The translations under genes were made by a program, and so were the position numbers. DNA of 64,000 nt, taken from contig SVBF01000007.1 of the NCBI GenBank assembly GCA_015058945.1, positions 66,230 to 130,229 on the forward strand, in the 5' to 3' direction. The notes beneath the pieces were generated by a model that saw only the letters and a list, made by a program, of their open reading frames with translations, did not search any database and was not told the origin of the DNA. Shown piece by piece: positions 15,644 through 64,000 of this stretch (positions within the stretch are counted from its first letter, which is position 1; each line of letters starts with the position of its first letter). This DNA comes from Erysipelotrichaceae bacterium (GTDB lineage Bacteria > Bacillota_I > Bacilli_A > RFN20 > CAG-826).

Positions 15644-15717
15644 GCAGGTGTAGTTCAATGGTAGAACATTACCTTGCCAAGGTAAATACGCGGGTCCGAT
15701 TCCCGTCACTTGCTCCA
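15644..15717 (+). tRNA. tRNA-Gly (anticodon GCC)
   Basis: GCAGGTG-TA-GTTCAATGGTAGAAC-A-TTACC-TTGCCAA-GGTAA-ATAC-GCGGG-TCCGATT-CCCGT-CACTTGC-T-CCA. Confidence 0.85.
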
Positions 15718-49987: not shown

Positions 49988-51631
49988 ATGGGTTCCTATA
50001 AAGGTTCCCGCGTCTTTGAGGGATATGCCCTTGGCAAACTCGCCGTCTATGCCACCGTCAAGGTGGAGAAGGCGGCTGGCTTAGGCCAAGACAAAGAATT
50101 CGCCCGCTTCGAAAAAGCCAGGGCCGCCACCATCGCGGCCTTGGATCGCTCCTACATGGAGACCCTCTCCAAACTCGGGGAGGAGGAAGCCGCCTTGTTC
50201 GCCACCCACAAACTGATGGCGGAAGACCTCGACTTCGAAGACGCCGTCCGCGCCGAACTGGAGACCGGCGTGTCCGCCGAATACGCGGTCCACGCCGCCG
50301 GGGGACAGCTCGCCGAGATGTTCGCCTCCATGGATGACGCCTACATGAAAGAGCGCGCCAACGACGTCCGCGAGGTCGCCGCCCGCATCGTCACGGCCTT
50401 GCGCCAAAAGGAAGATGGCTTCGCTTTGACCGAGCCCTCCATCATCCTCTGCGAGGATCTCCCTTCCTCCGAGCTCATGAAGCTCGACAAGAAGCTGATC
50501 CTCGGCATCGTCTTTGCCAAAGGCGGCACCAATAGCCACGTCTCCATTTTGACCCGCATGTTGGAAATCCCCGCCATCTGTGGCATCGAAGATCTCGAGG
50601 TGGACCGCAAGCTCGACGGCATCTTCGCCGTGCTCGACGCCTTAAAGAGCGAGCTGCTCATCGCCCCCGATGGCGACGAGATCTCCAAATACCTCGCGAA
50701 AAAGAAGGAATACGAGGCCAATAAGGCCAAACTCCAGGCCTTCAAAGGCAAGCCGACCTTGAGCAAGGACGGCAAAAAGGTCGAGATCTACAACAACATC
50801 GCCTCTTCCTTCGAGGTCGAAAACGCCCTCCGCAACGACGCGGAAGGCATCGGTCTCTTCCGTTCCGAGTTCATCTATCTCGACGCCAAGGACTACCCCG
50901 GCGAAGAGGAACAGTTCGAACACTATAAGCGCGTCGTTGAGGCGATGGGCGAGAAACAAGTCATCATCCGCACCCTCGACATCGGCGCCGACAAGAAGAT
51001 CGATTACTTCGATCTGCCCGACGAAGAAAACCCTGCCTTGGGCTTCCGCTCCATCCGCATCTGCCGCGCCAGACCCGAGATCTTCCTCGTCCAGCTCCAA
51101 GCCCTCTATAGGGCCTCCGCCTATGGCAACCTCGCCGTGATGGTCCCCATGATCATCTCCCTTGAGGAAGTCGACTTCATCCACCAGATGGCGGCCTTAG
51201 CGAGAGAAAACCTCGACGCCAGAGGCTTGCCCTACAAGAAGGACATGAAGATCGGCATCATGGTCGAGACCCCCGCCGCGGCGGTCTGCTCGGACCTGCT
51301 CGCGAAGAAGGTGGACTTCTTCTCCATCGGCACGAACGACCTCAGCCAATACACCTTGGCGATCGACCGCGTGAACCCCAACCTCTCCCTCTCCTTCAAC
51401 CCCCGTCATAAGGCGGTGTGCCGTCTCATCAAACTCGCGACCGAAAACGCCCATCGGGCCGGTATCCCCATCGGCATCTGCGGCGAACTCGCCCGCGACG
51501 AGAAACTGCTCCCCTTCTTCTTGAGGATCGGGGTCGATGAGCTCTCCGTCTCCCCGGCCTACACCTTATCGTTGAGGAAACAGATCTCTCATATCGATAC
51601 CCGTCAGGTCGACGAAGGAAAATACATCTGA
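49988..51631 (+). CDS. ptsI: Phosphoenolpyruvate--protein phosphotransferase (Enzyme I)
   Basis: 547 aa with the GGTNSHVSILTR phospho-His region and a PEP-utilizing C-terminal domain. Confidence 0.9.
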   Translation: MGSYKGSRVFEGYALGKLAVYATVKVEKAAGLGQDKEFARFEKARAATIAALDRSYMETLSKLGEEEAALFATHKLMAEDLDFEDAVRAELETGVSAEYAVHAAGGQLAEMFASMDDAYMKERANDVREVAARIVTALRQKEDGFALTEPSIILCEDLPSSELMKLDKKLILGIVFAKGGTNSHVSILTRMLEIPAICGIEDLEVDRKLDGIFAVLDALKSELLIAPDGDEISKYLAKKKEYEANKAKLQAFKGKPTLSKDGKKVEIYNNIASSFEVENALRNDAEGIGLFRSEFIYLDAKDYPGEEEQFEHYKRVVEAMGEKQVIIRTLDIGADKKIDYFDLPDEENPALGFRSIRICRARPEIFLVQLQALYRASAYGNLAVMVPMIISLEEVDFIHQMAALARENLDARGLPYKKDMKIGIMVETPAAAVCSDLLAKKVDFFSIGTNDLSQYTLAIDRVNPNLSLSFNPRHKAVCRLIKLATENAHRAGIPIGICGELARDEKLLPFFLRIGVDELSVSPAYTLSLRKQISHIDTRQVDEGKYI

Positions 51632-51641
51632 TCGTCGATTA

Positions 51642-51670
51642 GGCCACGGAGTCCCGTGGCCGTTTTTATT
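51642..51670 (+). terminator. Rho-independent terminator of the PTS operon
   Basis: GGCCACGGAGTCCCGTGGCC + GTTTTTATTT. Confidence 0.7.
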
Positions 51671-51699
51671 TCACCTCATCAAATCATCTCATCAAAGGC

Positions 51700-51870
51700 G
51701 GGCGACGCGCGTGCAGACGTTTTTCTTGAGCACGCGTTCGGGGCGGGTGGCCCAAAAGTTATCGTAGGTGACATCCCAGATGATGCATTGGCCGTCTCAT
51801 AGTAGACGTAGTCCTTCTGCTCGCCGGTAAGCACGTCATAGACGGCTTTGGCAAAATGGAGATCGAAGTT
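51700..51870 (-). pseudogene. Probable C-terminal gene remnant with frameshift
   Basis: The minus-strand translation reads ...AKAVYDVLTGEQKDYVYYE then, after a 1-nt shift, TGQCIIWDVTYDNFWATRPERVLKKNVCTRVARL*. There is no start codon or RBS. Confidence 0.3.
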
Positions 51871-54012
51871 TTATCTTTCCTTTCTGCGTCTCAAGGCGAA
51901 GAAACTTCCAACGGAAAGGATGGAAGCGATCGCGAGGAGGGCAACGACCACCGCCGCACCGTTATTGACTCGGCTAACAGAAAGAGGCTTAGGGACGGAT
52001 GTGAGTTGGATCAGTCCCGCTTCCTTGCGGTTCATGAAGTCGGCTAGGCCATATCTGCTGACGATATAGTCGTAGCGGTCGACGATATCCGCCACCGTCC
52101 CATATTCCTCTTTGTTATGGGTGTAGGTGGTACTCGCGATCCTTCCTTGGGCATCGGGGCTTAAGGCTTTATAGGAGGATGCCACGCTACCCCAAGAAGC
52201 AGTCAGAGCCTCGGCATCGGTAGAGCCATCGCTCTTGCAGGTCTTTGTCCCGTTATTGAAGGCGTCGATAAAGTCCGTCAACTCTTGATTGATCGAAGTG
52301 GTCGCATTGAGCTTATATAGGCTAACCGGGGAATTGGAGGTAGAGGGCTCATAGAGTTTGAAGCGCTCGCTGCCGGATTTTGGGTTATATCGAATCGGCA
52401 ACCCGTTGATTGAGAGGATGTCCTCGCCATAGGAAAGGCTAGCGATTCCTCTTGATGCATCGAATATCGGTTCATTTGTTATTCCGTATTCATTCCCAAG
52501 GAGATAATCTCCATCGGGGAGCTTAACGACGTAGGGCGCGCCACCCAAATCGAAGTTCCTGACGATCTGAACCCTCCTCATATCGATGTCGCGCGATCCG
52601 ACGATCTGGTTGTCGGCGACCTTCGCTTCGAAATAATTCTCCGTGAGGCCAACATAGCCCAGGGAACTGTCGAACAGCTTCGAATGATCCTCATTTTCAT
52701 AGACGAGCAAATAGGTTCCCCGCCAATCCGCAGGCGCATTTGATTCGGTGATTTTGCTGTAACGGGTTGGAAAGTATTCCGCCACGTCGATCGTGTAGGT
52801 GACGGAATAGGAATCGGTATTTTGGTTCATGGTCAAGGTGACGTCGAAGGAACCCTCTTCATTGAGTTCTGCGCCAATCGCCTTAGAGAAGCCGATCCCA
52901 TGAGTGTTCGAAGGCGTAAAGTCGCGATAGGTGATGGGCTGGTCGCCTTTGGTTTTGACGGCATTCACCACGAGCCCCTCGGCTGTGAAGGTATCTCCTA
53001 TGGCATAATGCGTCTTTCCCGGCTTAGCGATTTCAAGAGCGGCGATATGGCTGCTGCCATCGTTGATTTTATAGAGCGCAGGCCACAAATAATTACTATC
53101 TCCAGAGTCAGTGACAACCCAGTGAGAGACATTGGTATCGTAGCGAAGGTAGTTCCCTGGAAAGCCGACGCTTTCGAACTCCCACCGCCCATCTTCGCTA
53201 TCGTAATTGATCTTCCAATCCGCGTTGCCATTTCCGGTTATTGCGATCTTCTTGGAGGAACCGCGAGCTACGGCGCCAAGATAGTTGTACCTGTCATCCC
53301 GTTCGGTAATCGCATAAGCGCCACCCTCTTTTTCTTGCAGCACCCAGACGATGTATTGATCGTTGGTTGTGATGACGTTGTCTTTGATCGTGACGTCTTT
53401 CGCGCCCTGCCCTTCGTTAAAGCTGAAATCGCCCTCATAGAGAGCGTGGGTGCCCGCCGCAATGACATAGTTTCCTCCAGACGAAACGGGGGAAGTGGTT
53501 AATTCGTAATCGCGATAAGCGACTGGGACGATACCGGTCACGTTGATATCAAAGGTCCCTGTGACCGAAGGGCATTCTTTCGAGGTTACCTTCACCGTAT
53601 AGGTTCCGTTCTTTTCAAAAGAAAGGTAGAAGTCGCCGTAACCTTTGTCGAGGTAATAACATGGTTCTTCCCATACCATATCCTCAACTTCTTCTTCATT
53701 CGAATAGACCTTCACGGATACTTCCCGGCTTCCCTTATCCTCCCCGGTTGAATAAGAGACCACGTATTTGACGGTGGCATCGGCTACTGGATAGCCGCCT
53801 CCATCGATCTTCTCTGTATACCCGTCGATGGAAAGATCGATGCTAGAGACGACGACGCCAGCGTCCATCTTCTGTTTGGGAGTGACTAGTGAGACCTTCG
53901 TTTCGCTTGAGAGAGCTTTATCGCCGGATACGATGGTCACGGAGGCCCCTGCTCCTAGAGTCACCATGGAGCCTAGAAGCAATGCCGAGACCTTGGTTAA
54001 TAATTTACCCAT
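51871..54012 (-). CDS. Large cell-surface protein with signal peptide and C-terminal TM anchor
   Basis: 713 aa, N-terminus MGKLLTKVSALLLGSMVTLGAGASV, C-terminus AAVVVALLAIASILSVGSFFALRRRKER. No LPXTG motif. Confidence 0.7.
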   Translation of the reverse strand: MGKLLTKVSALLLGSMVTLGAGASVTIVSGDKALSSETKVSLVTPKQKMDAGVVVSSIDLSIDGYTEKIDGGGYPVADATVKYVVSYSTGEDKGSREVSVKVYSNEEEVEDMVWEEPCYYLDKGYGDFYLSFEKNGTYTVKVTSKECPSVTGTFDINVTGIVPVAYRDYELTTSPVSSGGNYVIAAGTHALYEGDFSFNEGQGAKDVTIKDNVITTNDQYIVWVLQEKEGGAYAITERDDRYNYLGAVARGSSKKIAITGNGNADWKINYDSEDGRWEFESVGFPGNYLRYDTNVSHWVVTDSGDSNYLWPALYKINDGSSHIAALEIAKPGKTHYAIGDTFTAEGLVVNAVKTKGDQPITYRDFTPSNTHGIGFSKAIGAELNEEGSFDVTLTMNQNTDSYSVTYTIDVAEYFPTRYSKITESNAPADWRGTYLLVYENEDHSKLFDSSLGYVGLTENYFEAKVADNQIVGSRDIDMRRVQIVRNFDLGGAPYVVKLPDGDYLLGNEYGITNEPIFDASRGIASLSYGEDILSINGLPIRYNPKSGSERFKLYEPSTSNSPVSLYKLNATTSINQELTDFIDAFNNGTKTCKSDGSTDAEALTASWGSVASSYKALSPDAQGRIASTTYTHNKEEYGTVADIVDRYDYIVSRYGLADFMNRKEAGLIQLTSVPKPLSVSRVNNGAAVVVALLAIASILSVGSFFALRRRKER

Positions 54013-54263
54013 ATTGGTTCATTCCTTTCCGATTCGACCTAAAGAATCCTAAGGTGAAATAATTCTACACTTTATCGAAGATAAATTAAGTCTCGAACCT
54101 AATCTTTATCCAGCAGCGCACCAAACACCGTTTTGGTGTGCGCTAGAGAAATTTTAGTTGTCTTTGAGTCGTCCCGAAATTTTCAAAAAAATAAAAGAGG
54201 ACCTCGACCACGTCGAGGAAATCCGCAAAAATGGAGCGCGATGCGGGATTGGAATCGCGTTCC

Positions 54264-54395
54264 ATAATTTGCCAAGAACAAGAAAAAAATCGGTTCACGG
54301 CAATTTATATTGTGATGGCATGGCATTGTCTGGCCAAGATTTCTAACATATAATTTGCCACGAACAAGAAAAAAATCGGTTCACGGCAATTTATA
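54264..54395 (+). repeat. Two 46-bp direct repeats (1 mismatch, 86-bp period), each starting with a -10-like ATAAT and holding an AATTTGCC/GGCAATTT inverted pair
   Basis: 54264-54309 and 54350-54395; the second copy ends at the RBS of the 54406 ATPase gene. Confidence 0.7.
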
Positions 54396-54405
54396 GGAGA
54401 CGATT

Positions 54406-55872
54406 ATGGTTGGTAGGAAACGAGAACAGCAAAAACTCAAGTCAGCGTTTCAAAGCAGGCGCGCGGAATTCGTCGGGGTCTATGGTCGCAGGCGTGTAGG
54501 CAAAACATATCTTATCAGCGAGTCCTTTGCGGGAAATTTCGTCTTTCAACACGCCGGGCTTTCCCCAGTGGAAGAAGAGCAAAAGGAAGCGGGATTGACG
54601 GAAGAGGAGAGCGCTGAACGCGCAATGCAGAAGCAGCTGGCCCACTTCCACGCTTCATTGCTCCGCGAAGGCGATGCAAATCCCGAGAAACCCAAAAGCT
54701 GGGAGGAGGCTTTCTTTCGCATGGAAAGGCTGATTGCCAAAAAACGCTCTAAGACAAAAAAAGTCGTTTTTCTCGATGAACTCCCGTGGATGGACACCCC
54801 AAAAGCTGGGTTTATCACCGCTTTGGAGGGCTTCTGGAACACATGGGGATGCCACCAAAACGACCTGCTTTTCATCGTTGCTGGATCAGCGACTTCATGG
54901 ATGACGGACAAACTCATCAATAATCATGGCGGGCTTTATGGCAGGCTCACAAGGGAAATCCGCTTGGATCCGATGACCCTTGGGGAATGCAAGGAACTAT
55001 TTAAGGAAAACGGGGTGGTGATTTCCGATTACGACATCGCTCAGGCTTATATGGTTTTCGGTGGTATCCCCTACTACTTGAATCCGATGGAAAGCTGGCA
55101 AAGCCTTGCCCAATATGTCGACGAATGCTTCTTCAGCGGGAAAGCAACGCTAAAGAGGGAGTTCGATCGGCTATTCGAATCCGTGTTCACCAATCCCGAT
55201 ACCATGAAATCCATCGTCAAGGCATTATTTTGCAGACGCATTGGGCTCACCCGCGCCGAAATCGAGGAAAACACGGGGGTTAAAACCGGAGGAGGGTTAA
55301 CGCGTTATCTCAATGCCTTAGCAGACAGCGATTTCATCGTGGAGTATTTCCCGTTTGGAATGGGAAAGAGAGAGCCTTACTATAGGCTAAGCGATCCTTT
55401 TTGCTGGTTCTATCTATCCTTCGTTGAGGGTAAGAAAGGGCTCCCGGCGAACTTTTGGCAGGGGAACACGGCCTCGCAGAGAATCGTTTCGTGGCGAGGA
55501 CTTGCGTTCGAAAACCTATGTTTCCTCCACGTTCCGCAGATCAAGGCGGCCCTTGGAGTCGCCGCGGTGACAAGCGAGGAATCGGCATTCACCAAGCGCG
55601 GGGACAGCCAAGAGCAAGGCGGGCAAATCGACCTTCTCATCCTACGCGCTGATAACATCACCGACCTTTGCGAAGCGAAGTTTGCCTCAGGGAGATACAA
55701 GTTGGGGAAGAGCGAATACCTGAAACTCAGCGATAGAGAGGCGATCGTCAGTGAATTGCTTCCAAAGAAGCATGCGGTTCATAAAGTTTTGCTGACAACC
55801 TTCGGGATTGCCGACAATGAGTATAGGTGGACATTCAATTCGGTCGTCACACTCGAGGATTTAATGAAGTGA
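54406..55872 (+). CDS. ATPase_2 (archaeal-type AAA) + DUF234 family ATP-binding protein
   Basis: Walker A GRRRVGKTYL, Walker B VVFLDELPWM. Paralogous to 56518..57954. Confidence 0.75.
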   Translation: MVGRKREQQKLKSAFQSRRAEFVGVYGRRRVGKTYLISESFAGNFVFQHAGLSPVEEEQKEAGLTEEESAERAMQKQLAHFHASLLREGDANPEKPKSWEEAFFRMERLIAKKRSKTKKVVFLDELPWMDTPKAGFITALEGFWNTWGCHQNDLLFIVAGSATSWMTDKLINNHGGLYGRLTREIRLDPMTLGECKELFKENGVVISDYDIAQAYMVFGGIPYYLNPMESWQSLAQYVDECFFSGKATLKREFDRLFESVFTNPDTMKSIVKALFCRRIGLTRAEIEENTGVKTGGGLTRYLNALADSDFIVEYFPFGMGKREPYYRLSDPFCWFYLSFVEGKKGLPANFWQGNTASQRIVSWRGLAFENLCFLHVPQIKAALGVAAVTSEESAFTKRGDSQEQGGQIDLLILRADNITDLCEAKFASGRYKLGKSEYLKLSDREAIVSELLPKKHAVHKVLLTTFGIADNEYRWTFNSVVTLEDLMK

Positions 55873-55886
55873 GGAAAGAGGCCGAA

Positions 55887-56315
55887 ATGGTTGTTATCCG
55901 AGATATTCGAGAAAAGGATTACCCCGAGGTGGCGCGCATTTGGCGCGATGTCCTCGGTATCCCCGTGACGGATGAGTGCCTAGCGGAAACCTATGACAAA
56001 ATGGGCAAAGACGACCGCTACGCCACTTTCGTCGCGGAAGAGAACGGAAAGATCGTCGGTCTAATCGCGACGGTCGTTTGCCTTGCGATCGGTCATCCTA
56101 GCGGATACACCAAGATCAATGGACTCGGCGTGCTCCCCGAGCATCGGGGCAAGGGAATCGGCAGGATGCTCATAGAAAGGGCTGAAGAGTCCGCGAAGGC
56201 CAATGGGACAATGTATCTCGGCCTTGCTTCGGGGCTTCAGCGCAAGACGGCGCATGCCTTCTATGAACACATGGGTTACCAAAAGACATCCTACTGGTTC
56301 AGGAAAAGGCTTTAG
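55887..56315 (+). CDS. GNAT family N-acetyltransferase
   Basis: Start MVVIRDIREKDYPEV is preceded by GAGGAAAGAGG. Acetyl-CoA motif RGKGIGRMLIERAEE. Confidence 0.7.
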   Translation: MVVIRDIREKDYPEVARIWRDVLGIPVTDECLAETYDKMGKDDRYATFVAEENGKIVGLIATVVCLAIGHPSGYTKINGLGVLPEHRGKGIGRMLIERAEESAKANGTMYLGLASGLQRKTAHAFYEHMGYQKTSYWFRKRL

Positions 56316-56486
56316 GCATTTTATATAGCCCGATTCCGTCTCCAAAAAAGCGTTGATTATTTGTAGGCCAGCCATTGTGCAAAACAATCAATATCTTTTG
56401 ATTCCATCGGAATAATCTGAAAATAGCGGAGCGCGATGCGGGTACAAGGTCAAACGTTGTTTGCTCATTGAACACATTTATAAAAG

Positions 56487-56530
56487 AGCGGTTTTTTGTG
56501 TTTTCATCATTTTCCGCTCAGTTATGTTTC
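56487..56530 (+). repeat. Element E1: GAGCGG-22 nt AT-rich-CCGCTCA inverted-repeat element overlapping the stop codon of the 56518..57954 gene
   Basis: aaagagcggttttttgtgttttcatcattttccgctcagttatg; about 80% identical to E2 at 57995-58040. Confidence 0.6.
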
Positions 56531-57954
56531 GTAAACAAGTCATCGATGGTAATCGCTTTCGAAAAGACATCGCCATACAGGCTTCTTTTTAGGCCAAAAG
56601 TCGAAACGAACACAAGTTGTATGGACTTTCTTGTCCCTAAGTCTTCCCGATACCTTTCCTTTTTGTTCTCCAGATTATCGCGATAATCCTTGTCTACGGC
56701 GAATTCCTGCGACAGGTATTTGATTTCACATAGGGTAGCCACTTTGTCCTTGCGATCGATTACCAAATCAATTTGGGCTCCGTCCTTCCCGTCTTTCGCT
56801 TCCGCCCGGTAGGAATAATCCTCGGACAGAATCCCGGAAATGCCAAGGCTTCCCTTTATCGCGAACAGATGGTCGGAGACAACCCTTTCGAAGGAAAAGC
56901 CCAACCACGCCCTCCTTGAGGACTCGTTATAGGAATTCCTCCAGAAATGCTCGTCCTTCCCAGCGTTCTCCTGAATGAAATGGAAATAAAACAGGGTGAA
57001 ATAATCGGAAAGAACATAAAGGCGCCTTTTCTTTCTGCCAAGGTAAGAGGTCTTTATCCTCGCGAACCCGGACGATACGATCCCTTCGAGCGCCTCCGAA
57101 AGCGCCCCTCCATCGGAAAGGCCGGACCTTTTCGCGATTTCTTCGCGTGGCAAACCCGCTTTTTCTTTAGAGAGAAGCCTCATGATTTTGGCGGATACGG
57201 CGCCTTTGGTGAAAAGCGTTTCGTAAAGCTGTGGGAACTCTCCTTCCAGTTTGGCACCCGGCCTAAAGAAAAGCGCGTCAATGTTCTCGCTCGGCGTCAA
57301 AGCGGGGTCAAGTTTGTTTAAATAGTAAGGTATCCCACCCAAAGCCATATACATCATGACTATCTCGTAACGGGGCCATTCGAATCCCTTTCCAACGAGG
57401 TAACGCTCCGTTTCAAGCAAATTGAAGGGCTGAAGGCTAACCAAATCGGTGTGGCGGTTATATAGGCCGCCTTTGCTTTTCGTGAACTTCTTGTCGATCC
57501 ACGAGGAGGAAGACCCGCACAGGATCAGCATCAGATTGTCTTTTGCGGAAGCATAGTCATTCAAGAAATAATTGAACTCAAAGAGAAAACCGCTCTTCTT
57601 CGTATCCATCCACGGGAGTTCGTCCAAAAAGACGACTACCCTCTTTGAATCGTCAAAAGAGTCTATATGGTGGCGCAGGGAAGCGAAGGCATCGGCCCAA
57701 GTCCGGATTTCACCTTTGCCACGATAGCCGTATTCAAATAAGGCCTCGCTGAATTTGGCAAGTTGTTTCTTCATAGCGGCTTTATGAGTGCCCGTGAATT
57801 TGAAAGAAAGCCTTCCCTTAAACACGTGATTGACCAAAAAGGTCTTGCCGACGCGGCGGCGCCCCTTTACAAGCACAACGCTGAGTTCTCTGGCGGCATA
57901 GGCCCTTTCGAGATCATGTATTTCCGCTTCTCTTCCGATGATGACGCTTTCCAT
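56518..57954 (-). CDS. ATPase_2 + DUF234 family ATP-binding protein
   Basis: GRRRVGKTFL, VVFLDELPWMD; 478 aa. Confidence 0.75.
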   Translation of the reverse strand: MESVIIGREAEIHDLERAYAARELSVVLVKGRRRVGKTFLVNHVFKGRLSFKFTGTHKAAMKKQLAKFSEALFEYGYRGKGEIRTWADAFASLRHHIDSFDDSKRVVVFLDELPWMDTKKSGFLFEFNYFLNDYASAKDNLMLILCGSSSSWIDKKFTKSKGGLYNRHTDLVSLQPFNLLETERYLVGKGFEWPRYEIVMMYMALGGIPYYLNKLDPALTPSENIDALFFRPGAKLEGEFPQLYETLFTKGAVSAKIMRLLSKEKAGLPREEIAKRSGLSDGGALSEALEGIVSSGFARIKTSYLGRKKRRLYVLSDYFTLFYFHFIQENAGKDEHFWRNSYNESSRRAWLGFSFERVVSDHLFAIKGSLGISGILSEDYSYRAEAKDGKDGAQIDLVIDRKDKVATLCEIKYLSQEFAVDKDYRDNLENKKERYREDLGTRKSIQLVFVSTFGLKRSLYGDVFSKAITIDDLFTKHN

Positions 57955-57994
57955 GTGAACATTTTAGAAATAGCGGAATCTTTAATCAATTATA

Positions 57995-58040
57995 TATGAG
58001 CGGTTTTTTTGCATTTTTTAATTTTCCGCTCATTTATGAA
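57995..58040 (+). repeat. Element E2: second copy of the GAGCGG...CCGCTCA element in the 5' region of the 56518..57954 gene
   Basis: atgagcggtttttttgcattttttaattttccgctcatttatg. Confidence 0.6.
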
Positions 58041-58444
58041 CATTTTCTTTTTGCATTATGGGTAGTGCGAGTGCTAAAGTGGCGTCCGCAAAGCAAGTCC
58101 TATAATGTGCTTGGTTCCGGGTTGAAGCGGCGTGGCTTCCGCAAGAGAATCGGTTCAATGCCGTGGGAAATCCCTCGTGGTTCCTTGATTCAAATCGCGA
58201 TAATCGTCGCGTTCCGACACGCTTTAAAAGGGGAATGATGATTCCTGAAGATTTTCGTCCACCAAAATAAAAGCGTTTTTTAAGTGGGCGATTAGTGGGC
58301 CAAGTTTTTGGAAAAGTGCGACTGTATCGGATAAATTTTGGTCATGGTTCACGATGCGGGCCGCCAACCGAGAATTTGTTCACTATTTTTTACCCAGATA
58401 AATTGGTTTTTTACCCAAATAAGAATAGGGTCAATCCTTCAAAC

Positions 58445-58981
58445 CTATGAGTGCTTTATCGATCTCCGAATAGATGGCATCGCACTCCTCTGCGGATACG
58501 ATAGCGGACGGAATCCAAAAGGAGCGAAGGCTTCCAACGCTTTATCGCCGTCGAATAGCGTTTTCGCTTTGGCGTAGGCAAATTGGTTCGCATCGATTTC
58601 GTGTGGTTGGGAAAGGTATAACCTCGTGAAGCGATCCTCTCCGCCATCGAGGCGGCATGAAATCCATTTCCCATTGACCCTTTTCGAGCAATTCCCATCG
58701 TAGGCGATATCATAATCCAAGGCCTTGCGGATGGCGGGAGGGAAACGCTCGGGATGGGCGAATTGCTCCGCGTGGCGAAGCTCGTGGAAAAGATAGAAGG
58801 CCTTCTCGGAATCAGGGCATTCCTTAAGCAATGTGGCGTTCATGAAAACGGTATCCGTTTCCGGGTCATACATGCCGTTTGCTTCCTCGTAACCCTCGGG
58901 CATGTCAAAAGATAGGCGACAAACAAGCCCTGCCTCCAGGCGCAGAGAATCGAATGAGGCGCGATAATCAAAATCGGGCAT
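58445..58981 (-). CDS. HExxH-motif protein (putative zinc metallopeptidase-like)
   Basis: FHELRHAEQF. 178 aa with no signal peptide. Confidence 0.5.
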   Translation of the reverse strand: MPDFDYRASFDSLRLEAGLVCRLSFDMPEGYEEANGMYDPETDTVFMNATLLKECPDSEKAFYLFHELRHAEQFAHPERFPPAIRKALDYDIAYDGNCSKRVNGKWISCRLDGGEDRFTRLYLSQPHEIDANQFAYAKAKTLFDGDKALEAFAPFGFRPLSYPQRSAMPSIRRSIKHS

Positions 58982-58993
58982 TGCGTTTCTCCC

Positions 58994-60367
58994 CTAGAGC
59001 AAATACGCCATGTAACAAGGAAGCGCGACGATTCCGTCGGGACGGACGAAGAGGTTCTTTGGGTGCAGGATGAAGGCTCCCCCGATCCTCGCCTTGAATT
59101 TAGCGACGAACCGCGTCAAGGAGACATTCGCGTAATTCTTCGAGGACTTCACCTCGATGGGGAAAATCTTGGGTTTCGTCTTGCTTCCGTTGGAAAGAAG
59201 GAAGTCGATCTCGATGTCGTTGCGCTTCTTCTCCTCGCTGTAATGGGTGTAGAAATAAAGCTTATGGCCGCTCGCGACGAGCATTTGGGCGATGGCGTTT
59301 TCGTAAAGCATGCCTTCATTGACGGACAGCCTTCCGGACAAGATGGATGCGTATACTTCCTCCGCGATCAGCTCGTTTTCGTCAAAGGCATGGGAAACGA
59401 GAAGCCCGGTATCCCCCATATAGCATTTCACCGCCGCCCGGGATTCGTTGAGGGACAGCCCGACATTGGGGTCCGAGCAGGCGAAGCACTCATTGCAGAT
59501 CATGGAATCCGCGAGCCAGAAAAAGGTCTCCTCGTATTCGGGGTAATTCGTGTCCGATTCGATGAGACGAAGCCTCACCCTCTTCTCGTGCATCGATAGG
59601 AACGAGGGGATCTGATCGAATATGGAAAGGACCTTGGCTTTGTACTTCGCGTCGATCTTCATGATGTCGTCGCGGTAATTCACGAGGATGTCCCTCTTCT
59701 CCGCGTCGCAGTCGGCGAATTGCTTGCGGGCGAGCAGGAATTTGGATAGCGCCTTGGGCATGCCGCCGACCAGCATGTATTGCTTGAACAGCATCATGGC
59801 CCTTTCGTGAAGCCCGCGCTCCAAGGGAATTCTCTTTTCAAAGCAATCCCGGATATAGGGAAGCAATTGCTCTTCCCCGAGAGCCCAGGCGAATTCCTCA
59901 AAGTCCATGGGGTACATCTTGATCTTCCTTTCCTCACTGGGGATCGTGATGCCCTGGACGTTTTGCTTGATGGAGATCAAAGAGCCCGTCTCGATGAAAT
60001 CGTAACGGCCGTCCGCGACGAGGTATTTAATGGCTTCCCTTGCCTTGGGGTAAGCCTGAACCTCATCAAAGATGATAAGGCTCTCGCGCGGATAGAGCGT
60101 CTTCCCGTAAGCGGCGGAAAGCACCATGAAGAACGTGTCGAGTTTTTCGAGGTTGTCGCGGAAGTCGTCGAACACGATGCTGCTCGCTTTGTTGAAATCG
60201 ATGAGGATGTAGGAACGGTAATGGGCTTTGGCGAATTCCTCGACCGCCGTGGATTTGCCGATACGCCTAGCCCCTTCGATGAGCAAGGCCTTCTCGCCTT
60301 TTGATTCATTCTTCCACTTGAGGAGCTTTTCGGTGATTTTTCTTTTGAAAATGATTTCCGGTTCCAT
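58994..60367 (-). CDS. AAA_14 + DUF4143 family ATP-binding protein (COG1373-type)
   Basis: Walker A GARRIGKST, Walker B LIIFDEVQ. Likely ATG start MEPEIIFKRK is preceded by AAGGAGAA. The track ORF begins 18 codons upstream at a TTG inside a direct-repeat array. Confidence 0.75.
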   Translation of the reverse strand: MEPEIIFKRKITEKLLKWKNESKGEKALLIEGARRIGKSTAVEEFAKAHYRSYILIDFNKASSIVFDDFRDNLEKLDTFFMVLSAAYGKTLYPRESLIIFDEVQAYPKAREAIKYLVADGRYDFIETGSLISIKQNVQGITIPSEERKIKMYPMDFEEFAWALGEEQLLPYIRDCFEKRIPLERGLHERAMMLFKQYMLVGGMPKALSKFLLARKQFADCDAEKRDILVNYRDDIMKIDAKYKAKVLSIFDQIPSFLSMHEKRVRLRLIESDTNYPEYEETFFWLADSMICNECFACSDPNVGLSLNESRAAVKCYMGDTGLLVSHAFDENELIAEEVYASILSGRLSVNEGMLYENAIAQMLVASGHKLYFYTHYSEEKKRNDIEIDFLLSNGSKTKPKIFPIEVKSSKNYANVSLTRFVAKFKARIGGAFILHPKNLFVRPDGIVALPCYMAYLL

Positions 60368-60374
60368 GGGATTC

Positions 60375-60460
60375 TCCTTAAAACGCAAGGTAATAATAGT
60401 GAAGTTCGTCTTAAAACGCAAGGTATCTAATAATGATTATCTCCTTAAAACGCAAGGTAT
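60375..60460 (+). repeat. Three direct repeats of CTTAAAACGCAAGGTA (about 33-bp period) in the 5' region of the 58994..60367 gene
   Basis: Copies at about 60375, 60408 and 60443. Confidence 0.65.
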
Positions 60461-60584
60461 CTGTTCCGCGACGAGCTACGATATCATCACAACAAAAACG
60501 ATCTGTGTTCGATTGATCGGAAACACGATTGGAATCTTGCATCCCTCGTTCTTTGAAGCCCGATTTTATCTTCAAATAAAAATG

Positions 60585-60675
60585 CCGAATTTTTGTAACC
60601 CAAATGTAACCCATAAAAATATAAACCCCCGATGGCATCGAGGGAATTTGGCTTTTGGAACGCGATGCGGGAATC
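60585..60675 (+). repeat. About 90-bp element A: tandem TGTAACCCA x2, CGATGGCATCG palindrome and the GGAACGCGATGCGGGAAT motif
   Basis: Highly similar to element B at 62097-62186. It lies 110-200 nt upstream of the 60782 gene. Confidence 0.7.
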
Positions 60676-60679
60676 TTTG

Positions 60680-60742
60680 CACAAATCTCTCGGAGCAAAT
60701 ACCGCAATATTCTCGGTTTAAAATCCACAAATCTCTCGGAGA
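60680..60742 (+). repeat. Two perfect 16-bp direct repeats CACAAATCTCTCGGAG, 45 bp apart, upstream of the 60782 gene
   Basis: 60681-60696 and 60726-60741. Confidence 0.65.
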
Positions 60743-60781
60743 AACATTGATTTCGCAGCGTAATCAGCTTATCATTTTCAT

Positions 60782-62083
60782 ATGAAAACGGAACGAACGA
60801 AGAACTACTTGCCTAGAATCCAAGACAAAGAATTGGAGGATCTTCTTGCCGATTTCGGCGCGGTGTTAATCCGCGGGCCGAAATGGTGCGGAAAGACGAC
60901 GAGTGCAGAGCGCCTCGCGGAGTCCGCGATTTACCTAAACGATCCCGATCATTTGGAAGAGTACGAAGAAATCGCTTCCCAGCAAATATCTTTGTTTCTA
61001 GAAGGCGAAAACCCCCACCTCATCGACGAATGGCAAACATTCCCTTCCGTTTGGGACGCCGTCAGGGGAAAATGCGACCACAGCCCCGACAATGGCCTAT
61101 TCCTCCTCACCGGTTCAATATCGCCTAAGCCTGGTTCGACTAAGCATACCGGCGCGATGAGAATCAGCCGCCTAGATATGGAGTCGATGTCCCTTTGGGA
61201 ATCCGACGAATCGAGCGGCGACGTCAGTTTCGCTGCGCTTTTTAGTAAAAAGAACGGACCAATCAAAGGACGCGCAAAGCTCGATAAGGCCGGCATCACC
61301 GCAGCCATCGTGCGCGGGGGCTGGCCGAAAGCCATCGCCCAACCGCCGAGGAAGCTCTCCCATTACGGTGAGCAAGCCTTCGTTTCCATCTGCGAAACCG
61401 ACATTCAGGAGGCGACCGGTCTAGGTTTGAGCAAAGATACAACCGCCGCCATTTTGGCTTCGCTCGCCCGAAACATCACCATCCCCGTGACCAACGAGAC
61501 CATCATCAAGGACGTCAACGAGCATGGGCAGCCACTGTCCGAGGACACGTTCTACGAATACATCAAAGGGCTCCGTCGTCTCTTTGTCTTGCGCGAGGTC
61601 CCCGCGTGGAACCCGAATGTACGGAGCGCCACCGCCATCCGTTCTATCCCAAAGAAGGAATTCTACGACCCCTCCATCGCCTGCGCCGCCTTGGGTCTAG
61701 GGGTCGATGCCTTGAGCTACGATTTTAAGACGCGTGGATATTTCTTCGAATCGATGGCGGGAAGGGACCTTTCCGTATACGCATCCGCATTAGGCGGTTC
61801 CCTTTCCTATTACCGAGATCGTTATGGGTTGGAATGCGATTTCGTCGTCCATCTTCCCGACGGACGGTATGGCCTATTCGAATGCAAAACCGGAAGCAAA
61901 CACATCGAGGAAGGTTCGGCGCATCTCAACAAACTGCTGAAGCTTATCAAAGAACGTAGGGCGATGGAAAAAAGCGTCGTCCTAAGAGAACCCGAAGTCA
62001 TGGTCATCATCACCGATGGCGAATTCGCCTATCGAAGGGAAGACGGGATCGTCATATGCCCGCTCTCCTGTCTGAAGCCATAG
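60782..62083 (+). CDS. AAA_14 + DUF4143 family ATP-binding protein (COG1373-type)
   Basis: Walker A GPKWCGKTT and Walker B GLFLLTGS region; 433 aa. Confidence 0.75.
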   Translation: MKTERTKNYLPRIQDKELEDLLADFGAVLIRGPKWCGKTTSAERLAESAIYLNDPDHLEEYEEIASQQISLFLEGENPHLIDEWQTFPSVWDAVRGKCDHSPDNGLFLLTGSISPKPGSTKHTGAMRISRLDMESMSLWESDESSGDVSFAALFSKKNGPIKGRAKLDKAGITAAIVRGGWPKAIAQPPRKLSHYGEQAFVSICETDIQEATGLGLSKDTTAAILASLARNITIPVTNETIIKDVNEHGQPLSEDTFYEYIKGLRRLFVLREVPAWNPNVRSATAIRSIPKKEFYDPSIACAALGLGVDALSYDFKTRGYFFESMAGRDLSVYASALGGSLSYYRDRYGLECDFVVHLPDGRYGLFECKTGSKHIEEGSAHLNKLLKLIKERRAMEKSVVLREPEVMVIITDGEFAYRREDGIVICPLSCLKP

Positions 62084-62096
62084 GAAAGACACGGTT

Positions 62097-62186
62097 GTTT
62101 TTGTAACCCAAATGTAACCCATGGAAATGAAATTTCCCCGATGGTGTCAAGGGAATTTAGACATATAGAGCGCGATGCGGGAAATG
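62097..62186 (+). repeat. About 90-bp element B (copy of element A), ending in AGAGCGCGATGCGGGAAATG, abutting the stop codon of the AlbA_2 gene
   Basis: tttttgtaacccaaatgtaacccatggaaatgaaatttccccgatggtgtcaagggaatttagacatatagagcgcgatgcgggaaatg. Confidence 0.7.
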
Positions 62187-63608
62187 CTATTTTTTAAGCC
62201 AAAATTTCTTCCCCTTCGTCGCTTTGCCATTGTTCTCAACGGTCCCGGATGCACACATTTCCTTTAAGGCAAGGCTCACCGTGGCATTGTTCACGGAAAG
62301 CGTTTTTGCCAACTCGGTCACGCTTGCCTCTCCGAGTTCGGCCAAAGCATGGATGATCTTCGTCTCCAAATCCGGGGAATTCGTGGTCAGGTTCTGAGTC
62401 AGCAAAAAGACCAATGTGGTTCGGGACGGGGCGCTCGACTGTTCTAAAATGGGGTCCGGAAAGCCCAAAGCGCGCATTCTCCGATAGATGTTTGGGACGC
62501 CTTCGCCCGCTTTGTCGCCGATCCTCGCGAGATGGAGCAGGTTCATCACCCCCTCGTTCCTTGGGTCGCTTTCGCCGCCTTGCAGAACCTGGATGATGGG
62601 AAGCCTAAGCTTGCCGGCGTTTTTAAAAGTGAGCACGCCGCCGGAAAAAGTAAGCTGCACGCCTCCCGGAAGCAGGTAATCGCAATTAGCGATGGCGTTG
62701 GTCAGCCCTTCGCGGACGCACTCCAAAAGACCTTCTCCGCCGTCTTCGTATAATCCGTTAAGGTGAAAACGGTTCGGTAGCATCGGCTGGATGCGGTTGA
62801 CCACCATATGGTAGAAGTCGAACGCGTTGCCGGTCCACGTCAGGCTCGATGCCTCAAGGCGGTAGTCCCACCTCGACGCGCCGGTTTTGTTTTCCCGATA
62901 GTCGAGGTTATATTCCGGGAAGATCTCCTTGATCATCAGGTAATTACCGAAAAGGAGGACCGCCGCGTTGGTGGGGACGATCTTGCCATTCCCATTTTTC
63001 TTAAGCGCTCCGATATGGAGGAAGAAGTCCTCGTCCGAATCCCCGATAAGGAGGTTGTCCGGATTCCTGGCGTTGAAGATGGAGCGGTATTTCGAAAGCG
63101 TGTCCCGGTTGAGGTCGCCGAATTCATATCCCGCCGCGTTCGGGCGCATGTCAAATTTCTGCGGGACCGCGTCGAGTTCCATCGCCCTCCTCTCGAACGC
63201 GGATGCTGGATAATCGCCGTCGTCCTTCCTCAAATAGCAAAGCGCGGGATTGCCGTTTAGGTATACTGGCTTAAGGGAAATCGGCGCCTCCCTGACCGCG
63301 ATCGCGATGACGGTCTTTCCCTCGACCGACATCACTTGCCATTGCGAATCGTCAACGAGCGCCACGGAAACCTTCGTCTTGTTGTTTATCGCGCTGAAAA
63401 AGGACTTCTTGAGCATCGGCTCATTGGTCACGCCCGTGATGATGTTCTTGGGCTTCTTCTCCTTGACGCCCAAATACATGGTTCCTCCCCGCGTGTTCGC
63501 GAAGCTCGAATAGGTTTCGTACATATTAATTGGCAAGTTGTCGGATGCCTCCTTCAGCTCGATCGTCTGGCTTTCGCGCAAAGTGTATAAATCAACTTGA
63601 TCGTTCAT
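62187..63608 (-). CDS. AlbA_2 (Schlafen-like divergent AAA) + HATPase_c_4 + C-terminal wHTH protein (RecG-like putative transcriptional regulator)
   Basis: 473 aa with an AlbA_2-type N-terminal signature and a C-terminal helix-turn-helix ELAKTLSVNNATVSLALKEM. Confidence 0.7.
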   Translation of the reverse strand: MNDQVDLYTLRESQTIELKEASDNLPINMYETYSSFANTRGGTMYLGVKEKKPKNIITGVTNEPMLKKSFFSAINNKTKVSVALVDDSQWQVMSVEGKTVIAIAVREAPISLKPVYLNGNPALCYLRKDDGDYPASAFERRAMELDAVPQKFDMRPNAAGYEFGDLNRDTLSKYRSIFNARNPDNLLIGDSDEDFFLHIGALKKNGNGKIVPTNAAVLLFGNYLMIKEIFPEYNLDYRENKTGASRWDYRLEASSLTWTGNAFDFYHMVVNRIQPMLPNRFHLNGLYEDGGEGLLECVREGLTNAIANCDYLLPGGVQLTFSGGVLTFKNAGKLRLPIIQVLQGGESDPRNEGVMNLLHLARIGDKAGEGVPNIYRRMRALGFPDPILEQSSAPSRTTLVFLLTQNLTTNSPDLETKIIHALAELGEASVTELAKTLSVNNATVSLALKEMCASGTVENNGKATKGKKFWLKK

Positions 63609-63794
63609 TTGGATATCCTCCCAGAAAAATAATACAACAACCGATTCATTAATTCATTATTTATTCGTTAGAAAAAACTGTTTTTCATTAACAATGTCTA
63701 ATGAATGGCTGCAGAGTGCATGGAAATATTTGTATAGCGCTCCAAAGAAAAAGTTCGGAAATTCGTTCGGCAATCGTGCGGTTAATAAACGTAT

Positions 63795-63835
63795 ATATGA
63801 AAATGTCTCGACGACGCCGAGACATTTTCGTTTGG
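63795..63835. terminator. Bidirectional terminator (11-bp perfect stem AAAATGTCTCG/CGAGACATTTT)
   Basis: gaaaatgtctcgacgacgccgagacattttcgttt with T-rich tails on both strands. Confidence 0.65.
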
Positions 63836-63837
63836 TG

Positions 63838-63855
63838 GAGCACGATGCGGGATTA
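63838..63855 (+). repeat. Sixth copy of the GGAGC(G/A)CGATGCGGGA motif, overlapping the stop of the partial minus-strand gene
   Basis: ggagcacgatgcgggatt. The other copies are at 54233, 56428, 58346, 60657 and 62168, all on the plus strand. Confidence 0.7.
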
Positions 63856-63856
63856 G

Positions 63857-64000
63857 ATAACCGGTGGGATGACTTGGTCCACGACGTCGCCAAGGAAGTC
63901 TTCGGCGTCCTCATAGACAACGGGGTTCGGCTCGATATATAGGTCTTCCTCGAACTTCTTGTTCCAGGAATAACCGTTCGCCTTGAATTCCATGGTGGTC
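63857..64000 (-). CDS. C-terminal fragment of a gene continuing beyond the window end
   Basis: Minus-strand translation ...TMEFKANGYSWNKKFEEDLYIEPNPVVYEDAEDFLGDVVDQVIPPVI* with the stop at about 63854-63856. Not in the track because it is truncated by the edge. Confidence 0.4.

Follow-up and report, generated by a model that had tools for sequence, protein, structure and literature searches.

Site-specific accretion of integrative mobilizable elements (IMEs) and cis-mobilizable elements (CIMEs) has been described in Firmicutes, as in ICESt1/CIME of Streptococcus thermophilus and the tRNA-Lys composites of S. agalactiae (PMC5704250). The ssrA-specific islands of Dehalococcoides likewise lie in tandem, between direct repeats of the 3' end of a small-RNA gene; only some of them carry an integration module, and much of the variation between strains comes from them (PMC3146451). 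The 10 kb island analyzed here, at the right end of the window (the whole stretch of 64,000 nucleotides that was examined), and its counterparts in relatives are like the IME/CIME composites in two respects. An element with a tyrosine integrase and a Rep_trans/MobT-type protein lies at a short attachment site, and integrase-less units stand in tandem with the same attachment repeats, incoming elements using the existing site.

The core motif and its arms

The features of the island, in window coordinates, are as follows.

54157-54232, + strand: arm 1, with direct repeats GTTGTC (54157) and GTCGTCCC (54168), 11 nt apart
54202-54218: hairpin of arm 1, CCTCGAC-CAC-GTCGAGG
54233-54248, + strand: core copy 1, GGAGCGCGATGCGGGA, where a 15.5 kb integrase element inserts in a sister strain
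54249-56443, + strand: unit E, made up of cargo, arm 2 and core copy 2
54406-55872, + strand: ATPase_2/PDC-S27 gene of unit E (Pfam, PADLOC)
55887-56315, + strand: GNAT gene of unit E (Pfam)
56363 and 56374: repeats of arm 2, with hairpin ATTCC-ATC-GGAAT at 56401-56413
56428-56443, + strand: core copy 2
56444-58361, + strand: unit D, made up of cargo, arm 3 and core copy 3
56518-57954, - strand: ATPase_2/PDC-S27 gene of unit D (Pfam, PADLOC)
58284 and 58295: GTGGGC repeats of arm 3, with a weak hairpin near 58318-58330
58346-58361, + strand: core copy 3, GGTTCACGATGCGGGC
58362-60672, + strand: unit C, made up of a P' module, cargo, arm 4 and core copy 4
58389 and 58410: TTTACCCA in the 70-nt P'-arm module of unit C, CGCCAACCGAGAAT...
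58445-58981, - strand: HExxH/DUF6782 gene of unit C (Pfam)
58994-60367, - strand: AAA_14-DUF4143/PDC-S01 gene of unit C (Pfam, PADLOC)
60595 and 60606: GTAACCCA repeats of arm 4, with a hairpin at 60626-60644
60657-60672, + strand: core copy 4
60673-62182, + strand: unit B, made up of cargo, arm 5 and core copy 5
60782-62083, + strand: AAA_14-DUF4143/PDC-S01 gene of unit B (Pfam, PADLOC)
62103 and 62114: GTAACCCA repeats of arm 5, with a hairpin at 62136-62153
62167-62182, + strand: core copy 5
62183-63852, + strand: unit A, made up of cargo, arm 6 and core copy 6
62187-63608, - strand: AlbA_2-HATPase_c_4-wHTH gene of unit A (Pfam)
63764 and 63775: repeats CGTTCGGC and CGTGCGGT of arm 6, with a hairpin at 63805-63823
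63837-63852, + strand: core copy 6
63853-64000, - strand: 3' end of a 364-aa gene, the right flank of the array; a Lipase_3 gene follows outside the window

Six plus-strand copies of the core, (T)GGAGCRCGATGCGGG, lie between 54233 and 63852. When the window was scanned with GGAGCRCGATGCGGG, exact plus-strand matches were found at 54233, 56428 and 63837, one-mismatch matches at 60657 and 62167, and a two-mismatch match at 58346; an additional two-mismatch match, at 32723, is within a coding region. In shuffled sequences 0.77 matches were expected and 7 were never reached. The full 16-mer, with up to two mismatches allowed, matched five times on the plus strand and never on the minus strand of 54001-64000, and had no match on either strand of 1-54000. 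The copies are spaced 2195, 1918, 2311, 1510 and 1670 nt apart and all six lie between real genes, copy 5 ending 4 nt short of the AlbA_2 stop codon (62187) and copy 6 directly adjoining the stop of the 364-aa gene that leaves the window. No further copy was found in the 10 kb past the window end. Across ~1 Mb of related loci the full sites are confined to equivalent arrays, and outside arrays there are a few lone degenerate matches without arm architecture. The first-pass annotation had reported six intergenic 16-mers in the same orientation, two of them at stop codons, and on all these points it was right, as it was in its Pfam assignments. Four of its six coordinates are also correct, while those given as 62168 and 63838 are off by one (62167 and 63837). 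The two-strand count that it had suggested as a check returned a motif that is confined to the array and strictly one-stranded.

The conserved word is 17 nt long, with a T ahead of GGAGC in most copies, and each core copy is the terminal part of a ~100-nt repeat, which had escaped the first-pass annotation. Alignments of 6 and then of 15 sites gave a non-palindromic conserved part, TGGAGCRCGATGCGGG. To the left of the core, direct repeats of 6-9 nt stand in a pair at a distance of 11 nt and are followed by a short hairpin, the whole site taking up ~100 nt; the repeat pair with its 11-nt period is present at -51 to -76 in 6/6 window copies. Repeats of at least 6 nt occur in 52% of 27 distinct sites (7% of shuffles), and hairpins with at least 6 perfect pairs in 67% (5.8% of shuffles). 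The ~100-nt arms are 80-95% alike among themselves. Arm 1 is ~75% alike to the arm of the sister-strain integrase element (GTTGTCCCggaGTTGTCCC), and arm 6 shares 85.7% identity with the right-hand arm of the integrase element from the array of a related species (locus L014); only such arm similarity appears to tie the units to IMEs. To the right of the left core, repeats are recognizable in unit C only. Units A and B lack a classical P' arm, because genes or other repeats sit in this position. The direct repeats of the arms, whose sequence varies by integrase lineage, are putative arm-type sites to which the N-terminal domain of the integrase would bind. As for the hairpin, it may act in termination or be bound by an accessory protein; on the minus strand, three of the arm hairpins have terminator-like scores.

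Integrase elements and unit reshuffling in related arrays

In a sister strain, contig Ga0307898_100004 (L010 plus L002) matches the window through the last base of core copy 1, after which come ~15.5 kb of new DNA, a second core (GGAGCACGATGCGGGA) with its own arm, and then window sequence again. The insert carries genes for Phage_integrase plus SAM_3, a Rep_trans (MobT-like) protein, a CI-like HTH repressor and an MmeI-type restriction enzyme. The integrase in the L014 array is 62% identical to that of the sister strain, and both elements carry Phage_integrase and have core copies at both ends. GTTGTC(C) repeats are found in both arms of the sister-strain IME and an identical 19-mer, CGTGCGGTAATCGTGCGGT, in both arms of the L014 IME. 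By its sequence the integrase is a lambda/Tn916-type tyrosine integrase with putative arm-type sites: it matches PF00589 (E = 3e-16), R198, K236, H302, R305, W325 and Y337 do not vary across 27 homologues, and residues 15-55 can be aligned to the Arm-DNA-bind_4 region (PF14657) of P0067, a distant homologue. Its best NCBIfam neighbors, both weak, are XerC (42 bits) and XerD (41 bits), with cut-offs of ~330; the integron-integrase model TIGR02249 gave 31 bits against a cut-off of 265, over the C-terminal 75 residues only. The match to the Rep_trans domain has E = 6e-20, but the same protein scored only 23.9 bits against the MobT equivalog model, the cut-off of which is 600. No oriT was identified; the sister-strain element was covered except for ~6 kb in its middle.

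The reverse complement of the core has the form of a tRNA 3' end, with T-stem, acceptor strand, U and CCA (a 17-30 nt pattern, compared by eye). ARAGORN and Rfam detected no tRNA, whole or partial, at any of the six copies, and the core thus does not coincide with an intact tRNA gene's 3' end. Relatives of the integrase at 25-33% identity are encoded on the strand opposite to a tRNA, ~100 nt from its 3' end, and these distant relatives adjoin real tRNA genes in the same geometry as the core. Because the core resembles a tRNA 3' end and the distant integrases adjoin tRNA genes, the attachment site probably descends from a tRNA-gene target.

An integrase gene is missing from the window and from the next 10 kb, and tblastn searches with the integrase and Rep sequences gave no match for the window units, so the array of the window strain may be static. 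The recombinase that the first-pass annotation had proposed to look for past 64 kb is thus absent from those 10 kb in this strain; a tyrosine integrase is found at copy 1 in the sister strain, with a homologue in the related species' array. On the five window units Pfam detected only ATPase, GNAT, HExxH and AlbA_2 genes, and each unit is bounded by cores and free of integrase and transfer genes, as CIMEs are. PADLOC placed the AAA_14-DUF4143 genes in PDC-S01 and the ATPase_2-DUF234 genes in PDC-S27, both candidate families. The cargo accordingly includes candidate phage-defence genes, and the defence or selfish role suggested for it earlier holds at the level of candidate families only.

Two comparisons bear on the crossover. 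Core position 6 goes with the left arm in the sister-strain insertion, and core position 16 goes with the right flank when L014 is compared with L015, which match at 100% through the core and are unrelated beyond it. These comparisons place strand exchange within the invariant CGATGCGGG. Unit B is 90.7-93.8% identical in L014, L057 and L058, with neighbors that differ on both sides; four different ones are found on the left and four on the right, and every breakpoint falls inside the core, exactly in its 9-nt invariant part. The window and L014 share 90.7% identity over unit B, compared with 74.6% over the adjacent chromosomal genes (nucleotides of the 364-aa/Lipase_3 gene pair). In the window unit C precedes unit B, and in L058 unit B is followed by the P'-arm module that opens unit C of the window, a module found after the core in four different cargo contexts. 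A 75% identical counterpart of the end of unit E is present in L060. Relatives therefore do vary unit by unit, which the first-pass annotation had named as a check, and the breakpoints fall within the motif. Neither an excised circle nor an empty site was observed for any unit lacking an integrase. At the orthologous locus downstream of PTS enzyme I (EI, window 49988-51631), neither array nor core is present in species with an EI of 97% or 84% identity.

Interpretation and alternative explanations

The insertion at copy 1, the arms and the reshuffling of units together lead us to conclude, with good though not full confidence, that the 16-mer is an integrase crossover site and that the island is therefore an IME/CIME-like site-specific accretion array of integrase-less units. 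In the mechanism that we propose, TGGAGCRCGATGCGGG would be the attachment-site core for a family of lambda/Tn916-type tyrosine integrases borne on small Rep_trans-encoding IMEs of uncultured rumen Bacilli. The 10 kb island would have formed by tandem accretion of five units, each with cargo gene(s), arm and core, equivalent to CIMEs and arranged like integron cassettes. Recombination at the cores would let units enter, leave and change order, mobilized in trans by the integrase of an IME that has inserted into that array, the sister strain being an example of such an insertion. Homologous recombination between the ~100-nt arms, instead of the integrase, could be what reshuffles the units.

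The strongest competitor, which we nevertheless regard as unlikely, is a relic array, in which integrative elements accreted long ago have decayed, the units are now immobile, and differences arose by homologous recombination and deletion. Decay is the standard route to CIMEs (PMC5704250), and it would fit the lack of an integrase near the array of the window strain, the identity of the five-unit block in all contigs of the source species that were seen, and the junctions in L057 and L061 from which core or hairpin has been deleted. However, genes begin or end within 0-4 nt of the left core in unit A and beyond, which random deletion would not do again and again; the repeat pair and hairpin are kept in nearly all arm copies; and unit B is far better conserved than the flanking chromosome and has four different partners to its left and four to its right, the breaks lying exactly within the invariant 9 nt of the core.

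The remaining explanations are much less probable than a relic. An integron remnant (CALIN), with attC sites recombined by IntI as folded single strands, would account for the cassette-like layout of gene(s) followed by a structured site in one orientation, for the two sites that adjoin stop codons, and for defence or toxin-antitoxin cargo; we consider it very improbable, since the integrase falls far below the integron-integrase cut-off and has an N-terminus of the arm-binding type, the sites show by eye no R''/R' pairing and no GTTRRRY, their conserved part is non-palindromic, and the genes lie on both strands with their own upstream regions. Just as improbable is a regulatory element (terminator or operator of the ATPase genes) or an array of Xer/dif-like resolution sites. 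The terminator-like minus-strand hairpins would suit the former and the Xer models, as nearest NCBIfam neighbors, the latter, but the orientation of the motif is fixed relative to the array and not to the genes, the motif is the exact junction of the 15.5 kb insertion, the Xer scores are far under their cut-offs, and the 11-6-11 symmetry of dif is missing. The first-pass annotation had likewise thought a promoter or terminator unlikely. Its own alternative, an uptake or segregation-type polar motif, is not supported: a generic over-represented or polar word (uptake sequence, KOPS/Chi-like) would explain why all copies are on one strand, but such a word, the least credible reading of all, is at odds with the absence of copies from the other 54 kb and from the orthologous loci of related species, with full sites only in equivalent arrays, and with a ~100-nt structured arm at each copy. 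The reading that it had preferred, a recombinase site bounding a modular array, is supported by the array-confined motif, the integrase element at copy 1 and the unit breakpoints inside the core.

A bolder form of the accretion array is possible, although we put it forward only tentatively and with some doubt: an integron-like platform, independent of IntI and attC, in uncultured rumen Bacilli, in which single-gene defence cassettes, all with an arm-plus-core site at their end, would be captured, excised and reshuffled at a tRNA-derived 9-nt crossover by arm-binding integrases that ride along as a Rep_trans IME cassette, several integrase lineages with different arm repeats pooling their cargo at one core.

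Comparison with known systems

Islands, and in Vibrio chromosomal integrons, are known places where defence genes cluster. The present locus offers a concrete and testable mechanism by which banks of defence genes could be assembled in uncultured gut and rumen Bacilli, its parts being a 17-nt core, lineage-specific arm repeats and minimal cassettes of 0.5-2.3 kb. Moreover, PDC-S01 and PDC-S27, which we take to be among the most abundant yet unvalidated candidate defence families, here lie on mobile cassettes, a location that speaks for a defence or selfish role. If integrase-less cassettes are indeed moved in trans, the array would be a second, independently evolved answer to the integron's problem.

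The SCC and pseudo-SCC islands at orfX (rlmH) of staphylococci are also made of tandem recombinase-less cassettes between short direct repeats of the integration site, and like the units proposed here these cassettes can be mobilized by the recombinase of another cassette. They differ in that the recombinases are large serine enzymes (Ccr), the target is an intact protein-coding gene at its 3' end, and the cassettes are much larger. The ssrA islands of Dehalococcoides are ~10 kb or larger, stand beside an intact tmRNA gene and carry metabolic cargo (PMC3146451), whereas here single-gene units are joined at a tRNA-like core without an intact gene. Compared with the IME/CIME composites of Firmicutes, the array holds at least five very small units (0.5-2.3 kb, mostly single-gene), combines several arm-repeat specificities on one core, has no intact target gene, whether tRNA or protein-coding, and shows cassette-like reshuffling between arrays. 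With integrons and CALINs it shares the one-orientation array of gene(s) and structured recombination sites, from which the recombinase can be missing, as well as a cargo rich in defence-type or toxin-antitoxin genes and the shuffling of cassettes. It differs from them in that the integrase is of an arm-binding lineage, not IntI, and travels as one of the units, and in that the site consists of direct-repeat arm, hairpin and 17-nt core in place of a folded attC, with genes on both strands.

A one-strand motif and its cargo

The first-pass annotation described a motif repeated on one strand in the last 10 kb of the window, and this was borne out. The 16-mer core, TGGAGCRCGATGCGGG, has six plus-strand copies there (copies 1-6, 54233-63852), and no copy of the full 16-mer with up to 2 mismatches was found on either strand of the first 54 kb. 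When we searched with GGAGCRCGATGCGGG, again allowing up to 2 mismatches, these copies were matched on the plus strand at 54233, 56428, 58346, 60657, 62167, and 63837, and a seventh match, with 2 mismatches, fell within a coding region at 32723. In dinucleotide-preserving shuffles 0.77 matches were expected and 7 were never attained. Consecutive copies lie 1.5-2.3 kb apart, and no additional copy is present in the 10 kb past the window end. The island has a GC content of 48-51%, versus 55-60% across most of the window. The genes between the copies are those listed in the earlier annotation; each unit consists of cargo, an "arm" of about 100 nt left of the next core, and that core.

Cargo of the array, from left to right
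Unit E, plus strand: ATPase_2 gene and GNAT gene
Unit D, minus strand: ATPase_2 gene
Unit C, minus strand: HExxH gene (DUF6782, weak) and AAA_14-DUF4143 gene
Unit B, 60673-62182, plus strand: AAA_14-DUF4143 gene
Unit A, minus strand: AlbA_2-HATPase_c_4 gene with a winged-helix DNA-binding (wHTH) C-terminus
After the last copy, minus strand: 3' end of a 364-aa gene

Both ATPase_2 proteins match the PADLOC family PDC-S27 (E = 1e-174 and 1e-168) and both AAA_14-DUF4143 proteins match PDC-S01 (E = 3e-104 and 1e-48). These types are abundant candidate defence genes, experimentally unvalidated, that encode ATPase-PD-(D/E)xK nuclease fusions (PMC12988326). The cargo of other arrays includes large ABC-type ATPases, AlbA_2 proteins, and a toxin-antitoxin gene.

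Several cargo genes are accompanied by local repeats. In unit E, two 46-nt direct repeats (54264-54309 and 54350-54395, 98% identical) closely precede the PDC-S27 ATPase gene; each holds the inverted repeat TTGCCAAGAAC...GTTCACGGCAA, and they may be operators that control this gene. On either side of the unit D ATPase_2 gene (minus strand) is a 52-nt repeat (56475-56526 and 57987-58038, 79% identity) containing GAGCGG-N22-CCGCTC, perhaps a regulatory hairpin, perhaps a small repeat element. Upstream of the unit C AAA_14-DUF4143 gene, whose start is at 60367 according to metagenome-contig gene calls, TCTCCTTAAAACGCAAGGTA is present three times in tandem (60373-60461, period ~34 nt); these copies look like iterons or operators. 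The AAA_14-DUF4143 gene of unit B is preceded by two copies of CACAAATCTCTCGGAG (60679-60694 and ~60724-60739; also at 15531-15600 of L014, the array of a related species), and the pair is kept in all arrays containing this unit.

An integrase element inserted at copy 1

We queried public assemblies with the AlbA_2 protein, the 713-aa Big_3-domain protein, and PTS enzyme I (EI; 49988-51631, plus strand). The window's five-unit block was also found in several metagenome contigs. The JGI contig Ga0307898_100004 of a sister strain (loci L002 and L010) matches the window identically through the final base of copy 1 and then continues into ~15.5 kb of new DNA. The left end of this insert has many GTTGTC repeats, while its right end has an arm of its own, GTTGTCCC-gga-GTTGTCCC, a hairpin, CCTCGAC-tgt-GTCGAGG, and a second core, GGAGCACGATGCGGGA, after which the window sequence picks up again at TTGGAATCGCG. 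Three other contigs stop at copy 1 or no more than ~60 nt from it, which may reflect strain heterogeneity at this position.

Genes of the insert (from L002 19615-21422 and L010 14568-21644; ~6 kb mid-element lie outside the recovered sequence)
361-aa Phage_integrase/SAM_3 protein
451-aa Rep_trans protein
CI-like HTH protein
Small HTH genes, including an HTH_3 gene adjoining the right arm
MmeI-type restriction-modification enzyme, adjoining the right arm
493-aa protein without a Pfam match, adjoining the left arm

Since the insertion lies exactly at copy 1 and a core is found at both ends, the 16-mer is the attachment core, present in duplicate, of an element that bears an integrase, which supports the earlier suggestion that the motif is a site for a site-specific recombinase. 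At position 6 the core has G in the chromosomal copy and A in the element copy, and this base goes with the left arm. L014 and L015, both from the related species, are 100% identical to the core end and unrelated beyond it; between them position 16 varies, following the right flank. The exchange therefore takes place within positions 7-15, the invariant CGATGCGGG.

Aligning the copies on the motif revealed a common architecture. Left of every copy, at -51 to -76, are paired 6-9 nt direct repeats spaced exactly 11 nt apart, followed by an A/T-rich stretch and a hairpin of 5-8 bp, often CGAY-NNN-RTCG, whose end is 13-17 nt ahead of the motif; a T and then the 16-mer close each site. The repeat sequences vary between copies (GTTGTC/GTCGTCCC, GTAGGCC, GTGGGC, GTAACCCA (twice), and CGTTCGGC/CGTGCGGT), with position and spacing constant. 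In a set of 27 distinct sites, taken from the window and from related loci, 67% have a perfect stem of 6 bp or more (5.8% of shuffles), and 52% have a repeat of 6 nt or more with a 9-13 nt period (7% of shuffles). In the metagenome annotation, an 82-aa gene has been called across arm 6 and core 6 (L001 9667-9915; window ~63694-63942), on the strand opposite the 364-aa gene; this call over an attachment site is probably spurious. The 17-mer (the core with its preceding T) gave 19 matches in viral contigs, all by chance, in unrelated DNA and without arms.

Relatives of the integrase are metagenomic only, and the catalytic residues R198, K236, H302, R305, W325, and Y337 are invariant in 27 homologues. 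Residues 15-55, at the N-terminus, align to part of a distant full-length homologue, its Arm-DNA-bind_4 (PF14657) region. With 31 bits for the integron-integrase model (cut-off 265) and 41-42 bits for the Xer models (cut-offs ~330), the protein is neither an integron integrase nor a Xer recombinase. A genome-collection scan with the single integrase as query gave no match, and a scan with the integrase alignment recovered nothing but MAGs of Bacilli, Erysipelotrichaceae, and Mollicutes, and this core is absent from most of them. By tblastn, the window itself contains no integrase or Rep gene.

A homologue with 62% identity, P0014, is encoded in L014-L016, in a genome that also carries, as a pair, a Lipase_3 gene and a 372-aa gene; the orthologous pair of the window strain lies to the right of its array (74.6% nucleotide identity). 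The L014 array has one orientation, with cores at 7266, 14493, 15509, 17019, and 18317, and its first unit is a 7.2 kb integrative mobilizable element (IME) with HTH genes, Rep_trans, integrase, LysR, and MatE. Both arms of this IME contain an identical 19-mer, CGTGCGGTAATCGTGCGGT, and its right arm is 85.7% identical to window arm 6. Judged from their sequences, the repeats on either side of the core, alike within an element and differing between integrase lineages, look like arm-type integrase sites. The LysR and MatE cargo (L014 11397-14235) has a GC content of 36-40%, versus ~55% in its surroundings, which suggests that it was acquired recently and from another host. L022 contains a larger element, covered short of its left end.

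Probable exchange of units between arrays

Unit B was found in L014 and L015 (90.7% identity over 1558 nt), L057 (93.8%), and L058 (92.5%), with neighbours that differ between arrays, in agreement with the proposal of a modular array with unit-level variation. At its left junction, four different arms are followed by the core and then by the identical unit start ATCTTTGCACAAATCTCTCGG; at its right junction, a constant GTAACCCA arm and core are followed by four different neighbours. The order in the window is C then B, and in L058 unit B precedes the module that opens window unit C. This 70-nt module (CGCCAACCGAGAAT...TTTTTACCCA x2) adjoins the right side of a core in four settings that differ in cargo, and looks like a P' arm pairing with GTAACCCA-type arms. 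In L060 four cores lie within 3.1 kb and one unit is a BrnA antitoxin; L057 and L061 contain decayed junctions, where the hairpin or core is lost and units are fused.

The integrase-less units may be moved by integrases supplied in trans, or they may be relics, reshuffled by homologous recombination between arms. How precise and how varied the junctions of unit B are speaks for recombination at the core.

Origin, range, and known counterparts

Read as its reverse complement, CCCGC-ATCGYGC-U-CCA, the core is laid out like a tRNA 3' end, with T-stem strand, acceptor strand, discriminator U, and CCA in succession, and a degenerate T-loop-like stretch continues copy 1. No tRNA, intact or partial, or other RNA gene was detected at any copy. 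Integrase relatives with 25-33% identity are encoded close to tRNA genes (Glu, Ile, Arg, Leu, and Thr), ~100 nt from their 3' ends and on the opposite strand, the same geometry as that of integrase and core here. With moderate confidence, we infer that the core derives from a tRNA-gene target. The tRNA-Gly gene at 15644 was ruled out as the source of the motif, as its acceptor stem differs. At 663-817 the window has a tRNA-Glu(ttc)/tRNA-Asn(gtt) pair on the minus strand, within a low-GC stretch (1-2000, 47%). In four loci of distant relatives (L028, L033, L035, and L044) a broad-family integrase abuts the same pair; no integrase is found next to the window pair within the 660 nt present.

Downstream of the EI gene, species with an EI 97% or 84% identical have neither array nor core, which makes the island lineage-specific. 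Among named relatives, rumen 'Bacilli bacterium' MAGs come closest. The 713-aa Big_3 gene (51871-54012, minus strand), left of arm 1, has an island-like GC content of 51% and is missing from the orthologous locus of related species. Because arm 1 is itself an element-type arm, this gene may be part of an older unit whose left core was lost. No convincing degenerate core was found between the EI and Big_3 genes (51631-51871), right of the Lipase gene (L001), or left of the 372-aa gene (L014).

The closest known kind of system is the site-specific accretion of IMEs with cis-mobilizable elements (CIMEs) in Firmicutes, which includes Rep_trans/MobT-type IMEs and in which incoming elements integrate at a resident attachment site (PMC5704250). 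Also close are the ssrA islands that lie in tandem in Dehalococcoides; an integration module is present in only half of them (PMC3146451). Unusual here are the small size of the integrase-less units and their number, their layout of gene(s), arm, and core, in which they mimic integron cassettes, the at least four arm-repeat specificities on one common core, and the lack of an intact target gene.
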